From an uncultured bacterium (GTDB lineage Bacteria > Fidelibacterota > Marinisomatia > Marinisomatales > TCS56), in the NCBI GenBank assembly GCA_964410945.1, contig CAYPJE010000006.1, positions 2,469 to 66,468 on the forward strand: a stretch of DNA of 64,000 nucleotides. The letters are read 5' to 3'. Shown piece by piece: positions 1,591-14,077 of this stretch. Made by a program: the position numbers and the translations under genes. The notes beneath the pieces are model-generated. The model worked only from the letters and a program-made list of their open reading frames with translations, was not told where the DNA came from and searched no databases. The first letter of the stretch is position 1, and every line of letters begins with the position of its first letter.

Positions 1591-1974
1591 TCAATCAATG
1601 CTGCTGTTTTCCAGCCATTGTAATGCTTCATCGCGGTGGTGGCATACTTTAAAATCCATTATCAGATCTGTGCTCAACATCTCCAACATTCGACCCAATC
1701 CGAAATGCAGGTCGTTACCAGCCACCAGAACAATGCGACCCGAACCTCGCCGATCCTGAATACCTTTAAAAAAAGAAATTCCTTTTTCAACTGAATTTAA
1801 ATCAAATTTCAGCTTGGCTTTTCCCAAATTTATCAGGGAGTTCATACCTTTTGAAAAATTTGTATCACGGACAAGTTTTTCTTCAAAGTCTTTCCACTCC
1901 AGAAGATCAATATTCCCACTTAATGAGACCTCAACCAGATTCCGGTCTTTGTTTATACAATACTCCATTCCCAT
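1591..1974 (-). CDS. Small SpoIIAA-like (STAS/SEC14-type) protein, paralogue 1
   Basis: 127 aa; FGLGRMLE and C-terminal DEALQWL motifs shared with neighbours. Confidence 0.6.
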   Translation of the reverse strand: MGMEYCINKDRNLVEVSLSGNIDLLEWKDFEEKLVRDTNFSKGMNSLINLGKAKLKFDLNSVEKGISFFKGIQDRRGSGRIVLVAGNDLHFGLGRMLEMLSTDLIMDFKVCHHRDEALQWLENSSID

Positions 1975-2095
1975 AATTGACGTTCGCCAGGAAACTGAAA
2001 AGATGCAATTAAAAATAATGCGGTGCGGTTTATGATACCCAAAATATCATGTCGTGAGAATTACCACTTATCTCCAAATACTAAATACTTTTTAC

Positions 2096-2473
2096 TTATG
2101 TCTTGTCATTGATCCACATGCGGGCATCATCCATGGTGGCAAATGTTTTTGCCTGCAAATTCAACTGATCACCGATCTTATTATATAAAACAAGCATCTT
2201 GTTGTTAATATCCTTTGGATATACTACTGCCCATTTGCATCCACGGAATGAAAATGAAAGCTTTTCAATATAGGTAATAAATTTTATCATCAGGTTAAAG
2301 TCTGTTTTGACAATTGCCGTGGATAAATCGGCAATTACATCAATCTTTGGATTCCAGTCCGGATCAATCATAACTCTATCAACATAGTCTAGAAAGACAT
2401 CCAGCTTAAACTGACCGGCACAAACGTACACCAGTAGATTATTGTGAACCGATAATTCATGCGAAATCACCAT
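2096..2473 (-). CDS. Small SpoIIAA-like protein, paralogue 2
   Basis: 125 aa; DVIADLS, KWAVV, FATMDDARMWI. Confidence 0.6.
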   Translation of the reverse strand: MVISHELSVHNNLLVYVCAGQFKLDVFLDYVDRVMIDPDWNPKIDVIADLSTAIVKTDFNLMIKFITYIEKLSFSFRGCKWAVVYPKDINNKMLVLYNKIGDQLNLQAKTFATMDDARMWINDKT

Positions 2474-2664
2474 ATTTAATCCTGCAATTAATAAATTTAC
2501 AATAATTTACGCATTGTCTACGACTAAAATAGCTCTATTAAATAAACAATAAAATGATTTTATAACTGATCAATAGGGTACAGTAAGACCAGGTTAACCA
2601 ATGATATTCAGGAAAATTTTAACAGATCGAAATGATAACAGGGCCAAAGATTGAGAATATTAAT

Positions 2665-3042
2665 CTATTCCAGCAACCACTCCATAGCTTCATCCATTGT
2701 GTGGAATATTTGAACCGCGCTGGGAGTATTCAGGGATAATGGCTGCTCATACATCCTTGCCAATCCGAAAGCTAAATCCTGACCAGCAACAAAAGCTGAT
2801 TTTTTATTACCCTCAATTCCCCAATTATCCTTTACAAACGAAACAAGGCTCGAAACCTGGTCGGCAGTTATGGATGATAAGTCTGCCTCATTGAGATCCC
2901 AGATGGAGTAGGGTAATTCGGCAAATCCGGGATCACCGTATAGTTCCTTCAGACTCGCAATTAATTCTTTATAATCAATCTTCCCCACCAGCCTGGAAAT
3001 CCTGATCAAATTATCGTGATCGATTTCAGTAATAACTGCCAT
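2665..3042 (-). CDS. Small SpoIIAA-like protein, paralogue 3
   Basis: 125 aa; IWDLNEAD, AFVAGQDLAFGLARMYE, FHTMDEAMEWL. Confidence 0.65.
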   Translation of the reverse strand: MAVITEIDHDNLIRISRLVGKIDYKELIASLKELYGDPGFAELPYSIWDLNEADLSSITADQVSSLVSFVKDNWGIEGNKKSAFVAGQDLAFGLARMYEQPLSLNTPSAVQIFHTMDEAMEWLLE

Positions 3043-4775: not shown

Positions 4776-7748
4776 TTAGTCAAGATAAGGTTTAATTTTT
4801 TCCAGTAACTGATCTTTCATTATTGGTTTCGCCATATAATCATTACAACCAGCATTAATAACATTATCGCGATCTGAAGTAAAAGCATGAGCTGTCACAG
4901 CAATAATTGGTATTGACTTCCATTGCTTGGACTGTCGCATGAAGCGTGCTAAATCTAAACCATCTTCATTACCGACCAGAGAAAGATCAAGAAGAATCAA
5001 ATCTACATTATGTTCTTTCAATTGTCGCTTTGCCTCGACGACAGATATGGCATAATACAACTCGTACTGGTTTTGCAGGAAAAACCGGAAAAGGTTCTGG
5101 GCATTCTGATCATCTTCTACGATTAAAATACGACCTTTCTTTTTAACTGCTGGTAGTTCCGTAACAGTTACTTCTTTCTTTTTGGCTTTCAGTTTGGGCT
5201 TCAATATCTGTGTAAATACAAGGGTAAATGTGGTGCCGACATCTTTCTTGCTTTCCACTTTAATTGAGATTTCATTCAAATCCAAATAACGTTTGGTGAG
5301 TGCCAGACCCAACCCTACACCTTGATACTTTTTTGTATAACCAACGCTCTCCTGGGAAAATAACTCAAATATGTGTTTCTGGTATTCCTTTGACATACCA
5401 ATTCCGGTATCAGATATTTTCAGTATTAGTTGATTTTCTTTTTCTTGAAGGGAAACTGATACAATGCCTTTATCTGTATATTTAAGAGCATTGTCAAGCA
5501 GGTTGGATATTGCTTGTTGAACACAATATTTATCAGCCTTGATAAAGGGATTCTCTGCTTCAAATGAAAATTTGATTTCCAGATTATTCTCCGATGCCAG
5601 AGGATAATAACTTGATGTTATCCCACCAAGCACTTCAATCAGATTCAGAGCTTCAGGGTTGAGGTCAAAACTCATAGATTCAAGCCGTGAAATATCCAAG
5701 ACTCCATGAATGGTTTTTAGTAATCGCTTATTGCTACTCCTGATTACGTCAAAAAAGCGCCTTTCTTCAGGCTCAATTTTGTTACTCACCCGTTCTTCAA
5801 GTAATTCTGAAAAGCCGATGATGGAATTAAGCGGTGTTCGAATTTCATGGGACATGTTAGCCAGAAAAAGAGTCTTTAATTTTTCTGCTTTTTTTGATTC
5901 TTCATACAGTTGCGCATTTTGAATGGCAATTGCACTTAAATCAGCAAGATTTTCCAGAAAATCCAGATCGTGTTCCAGGAATTCATCCTCTCCTAATTTG
6001 CTTAATGTTATAGCCCCAATGACATCATTTTTAATCCTTAAAGGAGCACACATCAAAGATTCAGGCTCCAGTGGCGTACCCGGAACCAGCTTGCCGATAT
6101 TAGTTAAATCAATTCTGTTTACCATTCTGGCTTCATTTTCCTGAACAACTTTACCGGTTAAACCTTCCCCAACTTTCAATCTGAAATTCATTATCTCATC
6201 TTTGTATTTCCCATTTGACGCCAAAGGTTTTAAATATTCTTTCTCTTTTTCCAGTGTGAATAAGGTAACTTCATTCGCTTCGAATACCTCTTTAGTAATA
6301 TCAATGCAATTGTCTATCACCAATGTTGTATTCAGGCTTTGTGTGAGAATATGACTAGCCTCGTTGATTCCTCTCGTGCGGTTAATATGGTGTTTAATCC
6401 TCATCTCTGTCCGCTTGTATCTCAGCACCTCTACAATGGCAACAGAAAGATTTTCAACCATTTCCTGGTCAGCTATCTCATATCCCCCTTTTTTATTGCC
6501 CAAGCCAATCATACCTATGGTTTTACCTTTGTGCTTCATGGGAACGCATAAAAAGGACGTTAACTCAGGATGACCCTCTGGTATACCGACTCGATCGGGA
6601 TGATTCTTTATATCATCACCATTCACAATTTGAGATTTACCTTCCTGGAGAGTTGATTTATAAATACCTCTGACAGGCATGTTCTTAATGAGCTTCTTAG
6701 CATCGGATGCCACCATTTTACATGTTTCCCAGCCCGGATCGCTAATTGCAATGACATCAATAAGACCTTCGGCGTTGATCTCATCAATAAAACCGAATTT
6801 GCTGTCAGTAAGACCTTCTACTATTGTGAGACATGTCTTGCCTAATTCTTCATCGGTTTCACAAATCAATGCCCCTTGAAATACTTTATTAATTGCTTTA
6901 AATAACGCTGTTTGTCTTAATATCTGGTTTTCCTTCTGCTTATCCTCAGTGATATCACGTGATACTCCCATTACCCCAATTTGATTACCATCCGTGTCCA
7001 ATAAAACTGATGCTGAGAGCAGGGTTGGGAAAGTCTCACCATTTTTTCTTCGGTTGCGTATTTCCTTAACATGACGTCCATTCAGAACGGTCTTCTTATG
7101 TACTCTTAAACCCTCTCTGGGGTCGGCATAGAGTAGATTAATATGTCTTCCTAAAACTTCCTTTTGCTTATACCCAAAAGTCTTTTCCGCAGCTTTGTTA
7201 AATTCACTTATCTTTCGTTTATTATCCACAGCTATGATCATGTCCAAAGAACTGTCAATTAAATTTTGAGAGTATTCTCTTGACAATCTTGTCTCCTGTT
7301 CGGCCGCTTTTCGTTTTGAAATATCACGATTACTGGCACGATATCCAAAAAGGGTTCCTGCATCATCTTTAACTGGCTGGCAAATATGTTCAATCCAGCG
7401 CACTTCTCCATTCTTATGAAAAAACCGAAACCAGATTTCTTTCAATCCAGGATTTTCTTTTACATCATGGGTATGCCTTTCCCAAATATTCTTATCATCC
7501 GGATGAATAATATCCATCAGCAATTCCGGGTTTTCCATGAATTGCACAGGTGTATAACCTGTTATACGTTCACAGGAAGGAGATACAAACATCATTCTAT
7601 CGTCTGGAGTCAGCAAGTACTCCCAATCACTGGTAAATTCTACCACCAGGCGACATTGTTCTTCATTTTGTTCTAATACCAAGATTTGCTCGCGTAAATC
7701 AAGTATTTCCTGTTTTAACAGCTCAGTTGTATTAAGCTCTTCTTTCAC
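4776..7748 (-). CDS. Hybrid sensor histidine kinase (PAS-PAS-GAF-GAF-HisKA-HATPase-REC)
   Basis: H-box ANMSHEIRTPLNS, N-box NLLDNALKYT, G-boxes DTGIGM and GVGLGL, REC LILLDLSL...MAKP. Confidence 0.93.
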   Translation of the reverse strand: MKEELNTTELLKQEILDLREQILVLEQNEEQCRLVVEFTSDWEYLLTPDDRMMFVSPSCERITGYTPVQFMENPELLMDIIHPDDKNIWERHTHDVKENPGLKEIWFRFFHKNGEVRWIEHICQPVKDDAGTLFGYRASNRDISKRKAAEQETRLSREYSQNLIDSSLDMIIAVDNKRKISEFNKAAEKTFGYKQKEVLGRHINLLYADPREGLRVHKKTVLNGRHVKEIRNRRKNGETFPTLLSASVLLDTDGNQIGVMGVSRDITEDKQKENQILRQTALFKAINKVFQGALICETDEELGKTCLTIVEGLTDSKFGFIDEINAEGLIDVIAISDPGWETCKMVASDAKKLIKNMPVRGIYKSTLQEGKSQIVNGDDIKNHPDRVGIPEGHPELTSFLCVPMKHKGKTIGMIGLGNKKGGYEIADQEMVENLSVAIVEVLRYKRTEMRIKHHINRTRGINEASHILTQSLNTTLVIDNCIDITKEVFEANEVTLFTLEKEKEYLKPLASNGKYKDEIMNFRLKVGEGLTGKVVQENEARMVNRIDLTNIGKLVPGTPLEPESLMCAPLRIKNDVIGAITLSKLGEDEFLEHDLDFLENLADLSAIAIQNAQLYEESKKAEKLKTLFLANMSHEIRTPLNSIIGFSELLEERVSNKIEPEERRFFDVIRSSNKRLLKTIHGVLDISRLESMSFDLNPEALNLIEVLGGITSSYYPLASENNLEIKFSFEAENPFIKADKYCVQQAISNLLDNALKYTDKGIVSVSLQEKENQLILKISDTGIGMSKEYQKHIFELFSQESVGYTKKYQGVGLGLALTKRYLDLNEISIKVESKKDVGTTFTLVFTQILKPKLKAKKKEVTVTELPAVKKKGRILIVEDDQNAQNLFRFFLQNQYELYYAISVVEAKRQLKEHNVDLILLDLSLVGNEDGLDLARFMRQSKQWKSIPIIAVTAHAFTSDRDNVINAGCNDYMAKPIMKDQLLEKIKPYLD

Positions 7749-8017: not shown

Positions 8018-11000
8018 TTAGTCAAGATAATGTTCAATTTTTTTTAGTAACTGATCTTTCATTATTGGTTTCGCCATATAATCATTACAACCAGCGTTAA
8101 TAACATTATCACGATCTGAAGTAAAAGCATGAGCTGTCACAGCAATAATTGGCAGTGACTTCCATTGTTTTGACTGTCGCATGAATCGTGCTAAATCCAA
8201 ACCATCTTCGTTACCGACCAGAGAAAGATCAAGAAGAATCAGATCTACATCATGTTCTTTCAATTGCCGCTTCGCCCCGACTACGGAGATTGCATAACAT
8301 AATTCATATTGACTTTTCAGGAAATACTTGAAAAGGTTTTGGGGTTTTTGATCGTCTTCCACGATCAAAATGCAACCTCTCTTTACAGCTGAGATGGACT
8401 CTGAAACATGTGTTTCTTTAAAATCGACTTCCAGTTGAGGTTTTAATATCTTTTTAAATTGTAAGGTAAATGTGGTGCCAACACCCTTTTTGCTTTCCAC
8501 TTCGATAGGGATTTCATTCAAGTCCAAATAGCGCTTAGTGAGTGCTAGCCCCAGGCCCACACCCTGATACTTTTTTGTATAACCAACGCTCTCCTGAGAA
8601 AATAACTCAAATATATGTTTCTGGTATTCCTTTGACATACCAATTCCGGTATCAGATATTTTCAGTATTAGATGATCTTTATTTTCTTTTAGGGAAACGG
8701 ATACATCTCCCTCATCTGTATATTTGATAGCATTGTCAAGCAGGTTGGATATAGCTTGTTGAATACAATATTTATCAGCCTTGATAAAGGGATTCTTTAC
8801 CTCAAATGAAAATTTGATTTCCAGTCTTTTTTCCGATGCAGGAAAATAATAATTAGGGGTTATTCCTTCCAGTATCTCAATCAGATTGAGGGCTTCGGGG
8901 TTGCGTTCAAAACTCATCGATTCAAGCCGAGAAACATCCAATACCCCATGAACGGTTTTTAACAATCGCTCATTGCTACTCCTGATTATATCAAAAAAGT
9001 GCTTTTCTTCAGGCTCAATTTTATCGCATACCCGTTCTTCAAGTAATTGTGAAAAGCCGACGATAGAATTAAGCGGTGTCCGAATTTCATGGGACATATT
9101 GGCCAGGAAAAGAGTCTTCAATTCCTCTGCTTTTTTTGATTCTTCATATAGTTTTGCATTTTGAATAGCGATCGCACTTAAATCAGCAAGATTTTCCAGA
9201 AAACCCGAATCGTTTTCCAGAAATTGATCCTCTCCTAATTTGCTCAAGGTAATAGCCCCAATGACATCATTTTTAATCCGCAAAGGAGCACACATCAACG
9301 ATTCAGGTTCCAGTGGCGTACCTGGAACCAGCTTGCCGATTTTTGTTAAATCGATTCTATTTATGATTTTTGCTTTATTTTCCTGAACAACTTTCCCAGT
9401 TAAACCTTCCCCAATTTTCAATCTGAAATTCATGATTTCATCTTTATATCTTCCTTTCGATGCCAAAGGTTTTAAGTATTCTTCCTCTTCTTCCAGTGTG
9501 AATAGAGTTACTTCACTGGCTTCGAACATATCCTTGGCGATGTTGATACATCGGTCTATTATGAACTGTGAGTCCAAACTTTTTGTGAGAACATGGGTAG
9601 CCTCATTGATACCTTTCACTCGATAAAAATAGTGTTTTTTTTCTTTCTCTGCCCGCTTGTCTTTCAACACTTCCACTATGGCTACAGAAAGATTTTCCAC
9701 CATTTCCTGATCGGCAATCTCATATCCCCCTTTTTTATTGCCCAGGCCAATCATTCCAATGGTCTTACCTTCGTATTTTAAAGGAACTCCAAGAAATGAG
9801 GTTAGTTTTGGATGGCCTTCCGGCGTTCCAATCCGGTCTGGATGGGTAGCAAATTCAACCTCATTAACTATTCGAGATTCACCATCCCTGATTGTCGATC
9901 TATCAATTCCTCTGATAGGCATACTTTTAAGGTTTTCCCTGGCATCATTGACAGCCATTTCGCAAACATCCCACCCCGGGTTACTTATAGCAATAGTATC
10001 AAAAAGACCCGCCGGGTTAACTTCACCCAGTAAGCCGAACTTGCTCTTGGTAAGGTTTTCTGCTATGGAAAGACACGACTTCCCCAATTCTTCCTCGGTT
10101 TCACAGGTTAATGCCTCCAGGAATACTTTATTGATTGCTTCCAGTAAAGCTGTTTGGTTTACTATCTGGTTTTCCTTCTTCTTTTTCTCAGTGATATCCC
10201 GGGACACTCCCATCACCCCAATTTGATTACCATTCGTATCCAATATTACTGATGCTGAGAGCAGGGTTGGGAAAATCTCACCATTTTTTCTTCGATTGCG
10301 TATTTCCTTGACATGACGTCCATTCAGAACGGTCTGCTTATGTACTCTTAAACCCTCCCTGGGATTGGCATAGAGGATGTTTACATGTTTCCCGATAATT
10401 TCATCACGACTATAACCAAATGTTTCTTCCGCAGCCCGGTTAAATTCGGTAATCTTCCGCTTATTGTTTACGGCAATTATCATGTCTAAAGAACTGTTAA
10501 TCAGATTCTGCGAGTAGTCCCTGCTGATCTGGAGAGCTTCTTCAGAGCGCTTGCGTTCAACAATATCCCACACCAGGTCAGCAAGTGCGGAAACAGTATT
10601 AATATCATTTTGGGTATAATCAGTTGATTTGTTCCCAACTCCGAGAATGGCAGCAATCTTTTCATTTCGAAACACTGGAACGACCAGCTCACGTATCACC
10701 TTGGCATGATTTTCGGGCAGTCCTTTTCGATGTGATAGCGCGGCATAATCGTTATGGATAACTGGCTTTTGTTGATGAATACAATCAACCCATACACCAG
10801 CTTCATCGATACTATAGTGCTTACCTTTTCTCTCTGCTTTACAGAATTTCGATTTTGTTCTTGTTGACCAGTTTTGGAGCGTCAGAGATTTCTGATCTTC
10901 ATCCACAAAATGATAGAATCCAATCAGACTATCGGTCAATTTTTCTGCTTCGTTAAGAGTTTCTTCCAATAATTCATCAAGCGAGTGGGTATATGAGAAT

Positions 11001-11062
11001 TTCACCAGATATGCTCTAGATTCAGTTACTAATTGTTTTTTGTCACTAGCTTTTTTTTTCAT
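8018..11062 (-). CDS. Hybrid sensor histidine kinase (GAF-PAS-GAF-GAF-HisKA-HATPase-REC), paralogue of 4776-7748
   Basis: Same H/N/G boxes and REC; N-terminal GAF (IGFYHFVDEDQ...RELVVPV...LGVGNK). Confidence 0.93.
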   Translation of the reverse strand: MKKKASDKKQLVTESRAYLVKFSYTHSLDELLEETLNEAEKLTDSLIGFYHFVDEDQKSLTLQNWSTRTKSKFCKAERKGKHYSIDEAGVWVDCIHQQKPVIHNDYAALSHRKGLPENHAKVIRELVVPVFRNEKIAAILGVGNKSTDYTQNDINTVSALADLVWDIVERKRSEEALQISRDYSQNLINSSLDMIIAVNNKRKITEFNRAAEETFGYSRDEIIGKHVNILYANPREGLRVHKQTVLNGRHVKEIRNRRKNGEIFPTLLSASVILDTNGNQIGVMGVSRDITEKKKKENQIVNQTALLEAINKVFLEALTCETEEELGKSCLSIAENLTKSKFGLLGEVNPAGLFDTIAISNPGWDVCEMAVNDARENLKSMPIRGIDRSTIRDGESRIVNEVEFATHPDRIGTPEGHPKLTSFLGVPLKYEGKTIGMIGLGNKKGGYEIADQEMVENLSVAIVEVLKDKRAEKEKKHYFYRVKGINEATHVLTKSLDSQFIIDRCINIAKDMFEASEVTLFTLEEEEEYLKPLASKGRYKDEIMNFRLKIGEGLTGKVVQENKAKIINRIDLTKIGKLVPGTPLEPESLMCAPLRIKNDVIGAITLSKLGEDQFLENDSGFLENLADLSAIAIQNAKLYEESKKAEELKTLFLANMSHEIRTPLNSIVGFSQLLEERVCDKIEPEEKHFFDIIRSSNERLLKTVHGVLDVSRLESMSFERNPEALNLIEILEGITPNYYFPASEKRLEIKFSFEVKNPFIKADKYCIQQAISNLLDNAIKYTDEGDVSVSLKENKDHLILKISDTGIGMSKEYQKHIFELFSQESVGYTKKYQGVGLGLALTKRYLDLNEIPIEVESKKGVGTTFTLQFKKILKPQLEVDFKETHVSESISAVKRGCILIVEDDQKPQNLFKYFLKSQYELCYAISVVGAKRQLKEHDVDLILLDLSLVGNEDGLDLARFMRQSKQWKSLPIIAVTAHAFTSDRDNVINAGCNDYMAKPIMKDQLLKKIEHYLD

Positions 11063-11875
11063 TATTTACTTCCAATAATCAGATTCTCAACAAATGAGGT
11101 CCGGGGGACATTTATCACTTTTGCTTCATCAGCCGGGTACGGTTGAAAACTACTGTTCCGAAACGTGATTGGAGAACCATACCACAGTTTCTAATAATCA
11201 TGTTAGTTACTTATTTATGTAAGGTTAATCATTGATAATGATTTCCATCAGATTTTTCGTGGATATTTCACCGGACCGCAACTACAATCATCTAACTCAA
11301 GCAGATTAATTGATAGTTATAACGAATATTTCCCAGAGCCTGCGCAACAGTATTCACCCATATATAACAGGAGTATAATCAATGACAATAATATAAACAA
11401 TACGCCTAACGCAGTATATTTAATAAAAAACCTGAGTACTTTATAATAAATCAGTCCCTCCTTACCCACCATCATAAGGTAATCTTCCAGTCTACATAGT
11501 ATTGTAATCTTCCCCAACTACAGGGCCATCAGAGTGAGAATTTTCACATTTATATTGGTACTGAAAAGGGTGGAATCACTGATGTTCACTACAGTTGTAA
11601 TTCACCATTCTTTTTTTTACAATACCATGAAAGAGTCGGTTCTATTTATACCAGAGAAATATAGTTGTGGAAATTGGAGGCCTGTAAACTGAAAATGAAT
11701 GGAATAAATGGCCATCAAAATCCCTTTCAATACCACTCTAAACTTACGGTTCTGATTCTCTGGAAATACGGTACTCAGCGTATTTCTATTATGGCCCAAC
11801 AGCGTTAGAATCAGTCTGTAAATGATATCCGTAGTGGCAAATGACACGGATTCATTGCTCCTTTAGCATATAAGC

Positions 11876-12244
11876 AAGCGGCTTGAATTCAGATCCCAAT
11901 ACCGCTGGATATCTGGTCAGGCCGCTTTACAAAATAAAAGCTGGCGGTTCGTTTTGTCGGAGGGGTGGTGTAATTGGTCCCCCTGTGTATCATCAATTTG
12001 AGAAGTAGGAACCAATTGTTCGAGGCATAACGAACCGCTGGAACTAATCGATTATTGACCAGAAGGCGGCTCGCCGGGGATGGATTGCATAGGGAACAAG
12101 TTGTGGGTATAACGAACCGCCTTGGTCAACTTCAATCATATAATTAAACTTAGTGAAAGCGGTTCACAAAATGGGTCTGTAAAATGGCTCTGGTTATTAA
12201 GGGGAGGGGAGGGATTGGAGCCAGAAAGTGTATCTGTGAACCGC
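11876..12244. repeat. Array of four imperfect hairpins sharing a GCGGYT...RCCGC closing stem
   Basis: Hairpins at 11876-11927, 11941-12041, 12055-12129 and 12159-12244, separated by short A/T-rich linkers; pairings traced by hand. Confidence 0.75.
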
Positions 12245-12354
12245 CTCCAAGTCCATTTATCGGTTTCAAAAATCAATGCAAATCAAGGGTAATAATTACG
12301 GTTTAAGTACCACAGTTTTAAATGCCATTCTGGCAGTACTGTTCCGTCATAAAA

Positions 12355-12408
12355 CCAAATGTCTCAAATAGCGCGAGAACAATGTCTCATTTATCGCGAC
12401 TACGTACA
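12355..12408 (-). mobile_element. Transposon-end-like sequence: TGT terminus plus two 23-bp repeated units
   Basis: Minus strand TGTACGTA GTCGCGATAAATGAGACATTGTT CTCGCGCTATTTGAGACATTTGG; units match 16/23. Confidence 0.5.
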
Positions 12409-12540
12409 AAATCAAACGGCTTACAGGTAAAAATATTGTGGATTGAGATAAAATCGGCCTGGATATCTCGATATAACTGAGAAATACGCGGGATTTTATA
12501 CATTTGCATGGGATTCAGTGGGATAAGATCATGCAATAAT

Positions 12541-12760
12541 GGAGCCCTGCAGGTAAACCCTGCCTGCACAACGTAGCTGCTTTCTGTACGCAGGCGTGGC
12601 ACCCAATACATGACTCGCCTTCATCGCTCGTGAGACTACGACACGATCATCCGCCTTGCGCAAAAGGTGACATCGCACCGAAGCGGATGACTGATCATTC
12701 TTTCCCGTACAAGCACGAGGTCTCCCGTCCGCCCGCCTACACAGTAGGTGCGCGGAGGTG
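12541..12760. other. GC-rich, multi-hairpin non-coding block, possibly a mobile-element end/leader remnant or ncRNA
   Basis: About 59% GC by hand count vs about 33% in 12781-12900; stems 12549-12563, 12562-12595, 12647-12690 and 12728-12756. Confidence 0.55.
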
Positions 12761-12926
12761 GATGAAAATAATTCCGGTTCATTCGCAGTGAAATCAGTGG
12801 GGATGTAAAATCAAATTGGTGCTACACGCAACTGATTCATTAATTCCAAATACAAAATATAAGGTTATCAGTCAGGTCGTGTAAAAGAGGTATATTAAAA
12901 AATATTACTCTACAAATCCACTTGAA

Positions 12927-13307
12927 TTAGTTAGGATTAACCCACTCCTTGGCTTGATCCAAAGAATTGAAAAACTGGAACTGCACAGGTAATCGCATCA
13001 AACATTCAGAAAATGCGGTTAACGGCACAGTCATGTAATTTCTGGGGGCAACTAAAGCAAATTTCATAGATGAGTTTAATCGTTTTTTATTTTGATTTAT
13101 AAAATGAATCAGTTGGAATATTTCAATAGATGATACTTTATTGATTAAATTATTTTCAATATTTATTATCATATTAACATTCTTATGAGTCCTGCCATAG
13201 TCCATAGCATATATAATTGAATTAAGAATATTCATTTTAACGACAATATCCCCACATGAATGTATAATCGTGTTGGTTTCTTCCAATATTATAGTCTTGA
13301 CTGGCAT
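12927..13307 (-). CDS. Small SpoIIAA-like protein, paralogue 4
   Basis: GGAGGG RBS before ATG 13307; KFALVAP, FFNSLDQAKEWV. Confidence 0.55.
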   Translation of the reverse strand: MPVKTIILEETNTIIHSCGDIVVKMNILNSIIYAMDYGRTHKNVNMIINIENNLINKVSSIEIFQLIHFINQNKKRLNSSMKFALVAPRNYMTVPLTAFSECLMRLPVQFQFFNSLDQAKEWVNPN

Positions 13308-13385
13308 AGTTCCCTCCATGGAAATATTAACAATCTTTTGCTATAAATCACACAACTTTATTTTAGATGCAATTAAGCGGAGTAA

Positions 13386-13435
13386 AAGCGGCCCCGCATC
13401 AGATATTGATACTTGTGGTATTAACGAACCACCTT
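13386..13435. repeat. Degenerate fifth copy of the hairpin unit
   Basis: AAGCGGC-N6-TCAGAT-N4-ATAC-N3-TGG spacing identical to the 11876 unit; right arm TAACGAACCACCTT resembles 12110-12123. Confidence 0.55.
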
Positions 13436-13465
13436 CAGGTCCATTGTACAATAAAAGTATTCCGT

Positions 13466-13510
13466 TCAAATAGCGCGAGAACAATGTCTCATTTATCGCG
13501 AGTACGTACA
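13466..13510 (-). repeat. Second copy (direct repeat) of the TGT-terminated end-like sequence
   Basis: 44/45 identical to 12364-12408. Confidence 0.9.
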
Positions 13511-13540
13511 TAAGTATTTTTAAAACCTCAACAATAATTC

Positions 13541-13570
13541 TTGACTATCAGGGGTAAAAAAAACTAGTTT
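13541..13570 (+). promoter_or_regulatory. Sigma70-type promoter of the dcw operon
   Basis: TTGACT (13541-46), 18-nt spacer, TAGTTT (13565-70), 42 nt upstream of mraZ. Confidence 0.6.
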
Positions 13571-13590
13571 GTGGGTAGTTGTGGGTAATT
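13571..13590 (+). promoter_or_regulatory. MraZ-binding dcw boxes
   Basis: GTGGG at 13571 and 13581 with 10-bp periodicity, immediately upstream of mraZ, matching the known MraZ operator architecture. Confidence 0.75.
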
Positions 13591-13612
13591 TTCCCTTTAG
13601 TTAAACGAGCGG

Positions 13613-14077
13613 ATGGCACTAAACGAAAATACATTCATCGGCGAATACGCCTATACTATCGATGCCAAAGGGCGCGTAAACGTTCCGGCTAAATTTCGGC
13701 AGGTTCTGACAGAAACCAATGCCAATACTTTCGTCGTCACCAAAGGCCTCGATCCCTGCATCTGGGTCTATCCCCAGGTGATCTGGCAGGATATTATGAC
13801 CGAGCTGCGTAACCTGTCCTCCCTTTCCGCACTGAACCGGACCTTCGTGCGCAGTACCACCCGGTACGCCACTTTTTCTACCTACGACAAACAGGGTCGT
13901 ATCCAGATTCCTCAAGCTTTAATCGACTATTCCCAGTTAGACAAAGACGTGCTGATAATTGGGATGGTCAACAAAATCGAAATCTGGAACCCCGCAAACC
14001 TGGAGCAGGTGGACCAGTCCAATCTTGAACTGGACCCCGCCGCATATGATGAACTGGCTGATAAAATTATCCTCTGA
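13613..14077 (+). CDS. mraZ: Transcriptional regulator MraZ
   Basis: FIGEYAYTIDAKGRVNVPAKFR, DKQGRIQIP, IIGMVNKIEIW. Confidence 0.96.
   Translation: MALNENTFIGEYAYTIDAKGRVNVPAKFRQVLTETNANTFVVTKGLDPCIWVYPQVIWQDIMTELRNLSSLSALNRTFVRSTTRYATFSTYDKQGRIQIPQALIDYSQLDKDVLIIGMVNKIEIWNPANLEQVDQSNLELDPAAYDELADKIIL

Follow-up and report, generated by a model that had tools for sequence, protein, structure and literature searches.

In the enterobacteria and in Pseudomonas, REP/BIME clusters act as mRNA-stabilising stem-loops in operon spacers, while the BOX elements of Streptococcus pneumoniae are multi-copy modular repeats (boxA-boxB(n)-boxC) with fixed module sequences. Here we describe a row of four hairpins, units A to D (11876-12244), in an uncultured marine Marinimicrobia species whose 3.3-Mb genome (46% GC, 84 contigs) is 95% complete. 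Positions refer to the window, i.e. the whole 64-kb stretch of DNA that was analysed (C6:2469-66468), and features are listed in Table 1. The array is a genuine feature of unusual form that fits none of the known families, and it has neither conservation nor a partner gene. The explanation that we tentatively place first, by analogy with REP/BIME clusters, is that it may be a species-private set of generic stable stem-loops in a long untranslated spacer transcript; the odds of a palindromic repeat without function are only slightly lower.

Table 1. Coordinates of the hairpin units and of neighbouring features in the window
Feature	Position	Strand	Description
Unit A	11876-11927		52-nt hairpin; arms 11876-11886/11917-11927; covariance model 45.7 bits
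Unit B	11941-12041		101-nt hairpin; arms 11944-11956/12026-12038; covariance model 70.1 bits
Unit C	12055-12129		75-nt hairpin; arms 12063-12073/12113-12123; covariance model 66.8 bits
Unit D	12159-12244		86-nt hairpin; arms 12159-12168/12235-12244; covariance model 56.9 bits
Broken fifth copy	13412-13441		TTGT-GGTATTAACGAACCACCTTCAGGTC, like the 3' half of unit C
Spacer	11063-12926	-	1.86 kb, from STAS-like ORF to hybrid histidine kinase 1; contains the array
Sigma-70-like promoter match	11841-11869	+	ATGACA-17-TAGCAT, 9/12 positions; weak evidence
P0121	12927-13319	-	Distant SpoIIAA/STAS-like protein; full-length alignment with the three STAS-like ORFs at 1591-3042
Hybrid kinase 1	8018-11062	-	GAF-PAS-HisKA-REC
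Hybrid kinase 2	4776-7748	-	78% identical to kinase 1
PAS protein, MarC, three STAS-like ORFs	Downstream of kinase 2	-	
mraZ	Other side of the array region	+	First gene of the dcw cluster
48-nt direct repeat	12364-12411 and 13466-13513		96% identical; two 19-nt sub-repeats (AATGTCTCAnnTAnCGCGA) per copy
GC-rich structured block	12536-12768		Present in 8 or more genomic copies, all beginning ATGGAGCC
mraZ promoter region	13533-13600		Two direct TGTGGGTA boxes 10 nt apart

Four hairpins with a common closing stem

All four hairpins that a preliminary description of the region had reported are present, with the same boundaries and arms, and are separated by A/T-rich linkers of 13, 13 and 29 nt. 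Units A to D have in common a closing stem, GCGGYTC/GARCCGC, which extends over 10-13 bp and encloses loops or interiors of 30-75 nt. The closing stem of unit A (AAGCGGCTTGA/TCAGGCCGCTT) consists of 10 Watson-Crick pairs and one T.G, and is followed by an inner stem of 5-6 bp. That of unit B (GCGGTTCGTT/AACGAACCGC) continues into a weak outer extension, and the predicted fold includes an inner stem, AATTGGTCC/GGAACCAATT, at 11972-11981/12008-12017. In unit C, which has no inner stem, AAGGCGGCTCG/CGAACCGCCTT sits inside an outer TTGACC/GGTCAA, and the single internal mismatch reads as C x A on the plus strand and as G.U on the minus strand. Unit D combines a closing stem, GCGGTTCACA/TGTGAACCGC, with an inner stem, TGGCTCTGGT/ATTGGAGCCA, and holds GGGGAGGGGAGGG in its apical loop. 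Unit C also contains a match to the mraZ operator (GTTGTGGGTA), which we rejected as an MraZ box as this motif occurs at chance frequency genome-wide.

A broken fifth copy lies 1.2 kb from the array, directly upstream of the second copy of the 48-nt direct repeat, and lacks the complementary left arm. Its local alignment with unit C scores 30, compared to 15.7 +/- 2.0 for shuffled sequences (0/500 as high); the covariance model built from the four units did not detect it at E<=10.

Pairing and common origin of the units

The four-hairpin observation is confirmed as real and not due to chance. When the 3.3-Mb genome was scanned for hairpins of long range (10 or more paired bases and an interior of at least 15 nt), 2128 were found. 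Among them, chains of two occurred 71 times and chains of three 4 times; the one chain of four is the array, which is also the only chain in the genome whose hairpins have a stem sequence in common. Likewise, 6 of the 19 GCGGYTC sites in the window fall inside 300 nt at the array. Relative to dinucleotide shuffles, individual units fold with z-scores of -2.2 to -3.9 on the plus strand and -3.9 to -6.3 on the minus strand (unit A, -3.9 on both; unit C, -2.3 and -6.3, respectively). The whole array reaches z = -1.9 on the plus strand and -6.5 on the minus strand; because the free energies of the two strands are essentially equal (-124 and -126 kcal/mol), this gap reflects the folding of the G-rich shuffles and is no strand signal. 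The array is identical in independent metagenome contigs of three studies, so that it is no assembly artefact. The surrounding sequence is found near-identical to the reference in seawater metagenomes from at least three studies, with a word depth of about 137x for the locus in the sample of run X3, and population variation inside the array amounts to a single SNP (11893 A>G).

Across a four-unit alignment, the 12 pairs of the closing helix are 89% paired and 6 of them are altered at both sides, which bears out the initial observation that the arms vary between units in a compensated way. With the partners shuffled, 2.9 +/- 1.2 pairs changed on both sides and 11 of 500 shuffles reached 6, and sliding the partner register by 1-3 columns lowered pairing of the helix to 22-44%. 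Three adjacent stem pairs are swapped on both sides between units B and D (G-C to A-T, T-A to C-G, and T-A to A-T), and 4 of the 5 positions after GCGG differ between units A and B with pairing intact. These compensated changes in B, D and A indicate that complementarity was kept while the sequence drifted. This covariation is one among paralogues of a single locus: it records that complementarity was retained, and does not indicate by which mechanism.

The interiors had been described as unrelated, a view that the alignments contradict. Units B, C and D align (MAFFT) on a common skeleton composed of the left arm, a G-rich GGGGAnGG motif (GGAGGGGTGG in B, GGGGATGG in C and, in D, the motif of the apical loop), GGAAC-CAA-TTGT, and the right arm, and a 31-nt 3' block is common to B and C (score of 29, compared to 14 +/- 2.4 in shuffles). 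This skeleton and the block common to B and C identify B, C and D as diverged tandem duplicates. The inner stems of B and D pair different partners, and C is devoid of one; such unit-specific inner stems point to a need for any stable hairpin more than for one particular fold.

Distribution of the array

To look for further instances, we built a covariance model (R1) from units A to D, which scores these units at 46-70 bits. Within the 3.3-Mb source genome, this model recovered only the four units, with everything else not above 18 bits. Other genomes from the order (232) and genomes from the phylum (400) gave no match, and neither did 79 viral loci. Short-word BLAST found no further or partial copy in the source genome, where the stem core GCGGTTCG/CGAACCGC is not enriched (37 and 50 occurrences on the two strands, for about 50 expected). 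When the region 11600-12900 was compared to 40 relatives by BLAST, matches occurred only in the neighbouring GC-rich block and the 48-nt repeat, and BLAST against phage and plasmid collections returned no match. Pattern scans of genome, metagenome and viral contigs gave, among the matches listed, chance ones only, mostly in GC-rich DNA; for the genome and metagenome contigs this is a weak negative. No hairpin chain with shared stems was found near the copies of the multi-copy GC-rich element or in the loci of relatives.

Synteny gave the same picture. The closest relatives have ordinary genes where the source genome has the kinase/array region, and no kinase orthologue that could serve as an anchor exceeded 63% identity over half the length, apart from the in-genome paralogue. 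The array is missing upstream of mraZ in 80 Marinimicrobia loci, in which the mraZ promoter alone is conserved. Rfam had nothing in the whole window at gathering score and nothing overlapping the array at E<=10 (11000-13000), and tests against individual families failed as well, in agreement with the original statement that no known class fits.

The array is thus private to one locus in one marine Marinimicrobia species. Nothing of it is conserved outside this species. The preliminary description had named homologues, conservation and transcription as the points on which its proposal would stand or fall, and here the array does badly: the covariance model found no homologue among the 632 Marinimicrobia genomes, covariation is that among the four units alone, and there was no RNA run among the runs containing the array stretch. 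Overall, its interpretation is partly supported.

Genomic context

The spacer that contains the array holds short ORFs only, none of them convincing and none with a family match. A scan of 11000-13650 for intrinsic terminators found none on either strand, while canonical terminators are used elsewhere in the genome, e.g. after ftsZ; any transcript that enters the spacer is thus expected to continue across the array. The linkers, at 13-29 nt, are too short to provide each unit with a promoter and a terminator. From the sigma-70-like match upstream of unit A, a plus-strand transcript is predicted to start at about the first base of this unit. The region holds 14 promoter-like sites, compared to 9.3 +/- 3.2 in shuffles, so that this match is not significant alone.

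The small proteins on the minus strand near the array, namely the three STAS-like ORFs (~125 aa) and P0121, form a set of four SpoIIAA/STAS-like sequences with 17-20% identity and a C-terminal D-x-A-x-x-W. They flank the tandem GAF-PAS histidine kinase pair, in what looks like a lineage-specific, duplication-rich sensory island, of which no close orthologues were found in public genomes. MraZ, encoded on the other side of the array region, has a best identity of 86% among relatives, and these place the genome in the Marinimicrobia (SAR406 / Neomarinimicrobiota / Fidelibacterota). The two boxes of the mraZ promoter region are conserved across dozens of Marinimicrobia loci and probably represent the MraZ operator of the phylum.

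The neighbourhood differs between strains. The two copies of the 48-nt repeat bracket a 1.1-kb segment that contains P0121 and the GC-rich block; contigs from runs X6, X10 and X11 join 12412 to 13511 directly, i.e. the segment is missing in some strains. The second copy of the repeat lies in the mraZ upstream region, itself partly conserved in one relative (L016). Contigs of a second strain (runs X10 and X11) depart from the reference in the C-D linker after 12141 and return at 12135, with unrelated sequence at the two junctions, which is consistent with an insertion duplicating 7 bp (ATCATAT); none of these junction sequences occurs in the source genome. Taken together, the linker insertion and the absence of the 1.1-kb segment suggest that this neighbourhood is dispensable or in flux.

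The GC-rich block is an element of its own. Its other copies are located at C9:3051, C5:36907, C6:81717, C84:112 and 768, C27:12758, C42:24444 and C24:38522. The first hairpin is CCACGGG-TAAA-CCCGTGG, for which the copy in the window has a compensated change (CTGCAGG...CCTGC). Short copies extend over ~85 nt and are followed by terminator-like hairpins, and long copies extend over ~230 nt with a different 3' part; the element has no Rfam match at E<=10. Between the two element starts on C84 lies a 159-aa ORF (C84:240-716), the C-terminal half of which resembles, by eye, a putative AP2-type DNA-binding domain.

Strand signals and possible functions

Tolerated G-U pairs on the plus strand had initially been taken as a hint of selection on a single-stranded structure. 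Such pairs are indeed tolerated, but they are not specific to the plus strand: of the mismatches in the closing stems, three are G.U-type on the plus strand (T.G in A; T.G and G.T in the outer part of B) and three are G.U only on the minus strand (C x A in C; two A x C in the outer part of D). The inner stem of D adds three plus-strand wobbles, for an overall ratio of 6:3 that is not significant. This balance in the closing stems favours neither RNA strand, and is as expected of DNA palindromes with random transitions. It therefore does not sustain selection on a plus-strand RNA.

The same even distribution is one of several features expected if the array were a functionless by-product, in which an inverted-repeat segment was tandemly amplified in a duplication-prone, strain-variable region, and in which a mutational process (intrastrand template switching at quasi-palindromes), not selection, kept or rebuilt the stems. 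We regard this as possible, if on balance doubtful. It would agree with the restriction to one species and one locus, with neighbours that are themselves tandem duplicates (the kinases at 78% identity and the three STAS-like ORFs), and with the 48-nt direct repeat, the 1.1-kb indel polymorphism and the probable C-D linker insertion. Different inner stems in each unit are likewise what a general palindrome-forming tendency predicts. However, perfect cores of at least 10 bp persist in all four units despite almost unalignable interiors, and the array is invariant across the three independent studies. Its arms are also 30-75 nt apart, a distance far above that of the spacers for which template-switch correction is best documented.

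A second alternative would have the array act in trans as a multi-module regulatory RNA, either through C-rich anti-Shine-Dalgarno seeds on the minus strand (CCCUCCCCUCCCC, CCCC and CCCCUCC), left unpaired and repressing translation of target mRNAs, or through a G-rich plus strand that titrates CsrA or ribosomes. A CsrA gene is present in the genome (PF02599, 77.5 bits, C24:56-205), Shine-Dalgarno sequences are in use (GGAG upstream of 17% of starts, for a background of 3%), GGAGG occurs 3 times for 0.65 expected (p 0.03), and the C-rich motifs on the minus strand are all predicted to be 83-100% unpaired. The promoter-like site immediately before unit A would serve a plus-strand transcript, and the sole SNP in the array retains its pair as G.U on that strand. 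Conversely, GGA is not enriched, although several interiors had been described as rich in it: 11 occurrences compare to 8.5 expected from base composition (p about 0.19), and the unpaired probability of these triplets ranges from 0.06 to 0.89, with 7 of 11 below 0.5 and most of them paired or in internal loops and not in exposed apical ones, so that the protein sponge suggested at first is not supported even in a genome with CsrA. The three C/G-rich motifs derive from one ancestral motif by duplication and are thus not independent evidence, while exposure of the C-rich motifs is a trivial result of the shortage of G in the loops. Along with the lack of a terminator on either strand and of a promoter per unit, and the lack of homologues and of an RNA run noted above, this makes a trans-acting RNA unlikely. 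One specific form, a young modular riboregulator in which a single transcript would carry GC-clamped modules with unpaired minus-strand anti-Shine-Dalgarno seeds, is a long shot. Such a regulator would have arisen through tandem duplication in one Marinimicrobia lineage and, controlled by the neighbouring STAS/hybrid-kinase sensory cluster, could act on many ribosome-binding sites simultaneously, by repression or titration.

Third, the hairpins could be recognised at the DNA level, as single-stranded hairpins or inverted repeats for a recombinase, HUH protein or transposase, or as decayed nested MITE-like ends, along the lines of the recombination sites suggested in the preliminary description. 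Eight copies of the 7-bp core in alternating orientation inside 370 bp would suit such a role, as would the seven Y1-transposase-like genes of the genome and the indel polymorphism in the region. Yet the stem core occurs no more often than expected, neither the covariance model nor short-word BLAST found an extra copy, and the flanks of the Y1 genes carry hairpins unrelated to the arms. No recombinase, transposase, HUH or reverse-transcriptase gene was found within about 11 kb to one side of the array and about 16 kb to the other; there are no target-site duplications, cassettes, or RYYYAAC/GTTRRRY boxes; and nothing similar was seen in phage, plasmid and viral collections (for the viral pattern scans, among the matches listed). 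Recognition as DNA is accordingly improbable.

The reading that we tentatively prefer, generic stable stem-loops in an untranslated transcript, would begin with an ancestral module of ~75-100 nt whose ends paired as a GC-rich clamp (GCGGYTC...GARCCGC). Duplicated in place, this module would have given rise to four full modules and one broken copy 1.2 kb off, and the copies would have diverged, each keeping or rebuilding its closing stem of 10-13 bp. Within a spacer transcript, the modules could block exonucleases or offer cleavage sites, and either effect could determine how stable the neighbouring messages are or how far they are decoupled, as REP/BIME clusters do in enterobacterial operon spacers. 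Our data establish the hairpins themselves, their descent from one ancestor, the compensation in their stems, the uniqueness of the array, and the lack of a terminator and of promoters for single units; transcription of the spacer, the strand that would be relevant, and an effect on stability or processing are inferred. Stem-loops in a spacer transcript are favoured by flanking genes that share a strand and are related in function (the STAS-like ORFs and the two kinases), and also by the non-random hairpins, the duplicate origin of B, C and D with a fifth half-copy, the complementarity kept during drift, the unit-specific inner stems, the lack of an intrinsic terminator in 11000-13650, and linkers too short for a promoter and terminator per unit. 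The missing RNA run, the absence of conservation outside the species, the 3 vs 3 mismatches that favour no strand, the indels in the neighbourhood, and loops of 30-75 nt that are far larger than those of REP stabilisers all argue against it.

If these are functional RNA stem-loops, they would offer a rare view of a structured element at its birth, at one locus of an uncultured and abundant deep-ocean lineage: an element made by tandem duplication, with stems retained and the rest drifting. It would also mean that REP-like stabilising hairpins can arise privately, with no mobile family behind them. A functionless array, by contrast, would be a warning to covariation scans, since compensated stems among paralogous units can mimic selection on RNA structure without conservation. 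As no second instance was found, the element at present offers no family for comparative work.

Comparison with known families

Several classes were rejected on their defining features. A terminator cluster does not fit because the loops are long (30-75 nt) and T-runs are absent, while the real terminators of this genome are canonical. Tandem sRNA arrays (LhrC, Qrr, FopS-like) were set aside, as the array has one promoter-like site, before unit A, no terminators, and linkers of 13-29 nt. For MITEs, the arms are inverted as in these elements, but no unit has flanking direct duplications, and the array is restricted to a single locus.

Like integron attC sites, which are 50-140 nt long, the units are imperfect palindromes in a row in which structure is conserved above sequence. 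Neither integron attC sites nor CALINs are supported here: RYYYAAC/GTTRRRY boxes are absent from the unit ends, linkers of 13-29 nt leave no cassettes, and no integrase is nearby.

Y RNAs and TIGR-Tas arrays likewise consist of successive modules in which a conserved or covarying stem closes off a variable interior, and the preliminary description had considered a guide-like array. The array, unlike these, has irregular unit lengths, no tRNA-like domain and no partner proteins. For Y RNA/Ro60 (Rsr), both PF05731 and PF11443 are absent from the genome, and no Rfam Y-RNA or YrlA model matched at E<=10. For TIGR-Tas/CRISPR, the Nop-domain family PF01798, the effector searched for, is absent, the repeats are inverted, the lengths are 52, 101, 75 and 86 nt, and a repeat finder reported no regular direct-repeat family in the array. 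The genome thus lacks Nop/Tas, TROVE/Ro60 and DUF2828 proteins, and the units lack a promoter or terminator of their own, which does not speak for guides.

The CsrB/CsrC and RsmX/Y/Z sponges resemble the array in having hairpins in a row, one G-rich strand, and a CsrA gene in the genome. They differ in that sponges carry many A(N)GGA motifs, displayed in short apical loops, and have a terminator at their end, whereas the array has GGA mostly paired or in internal loops, no terminator and no Rfam match; a CsrB/RsmZ-type sponge was rejected on the GGA counts and pairing probabilities given above and on the missing terminator.

Like the array, BOX elements are modular and intergenic, with a middle unit that is repeated in tandem and predicted to fold into stable stem-loops, and both may affect neighbouring transcripts. 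The array differs from BOX in being confined to one locus, with the clamp alone common to its units.

A close counterpart is REP/BIME. The array cannot be assigned to REP/BIME/REPIN families, which are dispersed genome-wide, since its core is not enriched and the covariance model finds four units only. There is also no cognate RAYT: the +/-700 nt flanks of the seven Y1_Tnp genes have no GCGGYTC-type hairpins. One of these Y1-transposase-like genes (C11:82463-83264) has repeated CGACAGACA-loop-TGTCTGTCG hairpins on both sides, unrelated to the array, and may form a RAYT/REP-type pair with them. REP elements are dispersed in tens to hundreds of copies alongside their RAYT and measure 20-40 nt with small loops, whereas the array occupies a single locus with units of 52-101 nt and interiors of 30-75 nt. 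Nonetheless, the units are extragenic imperfect palindromes in a cluster, and like REP/BIME they follow one another head to tail, with alternating arms and hairpins that can form on either strand, in an untranslated operon spacer and without a promoter or terminator for each unit.
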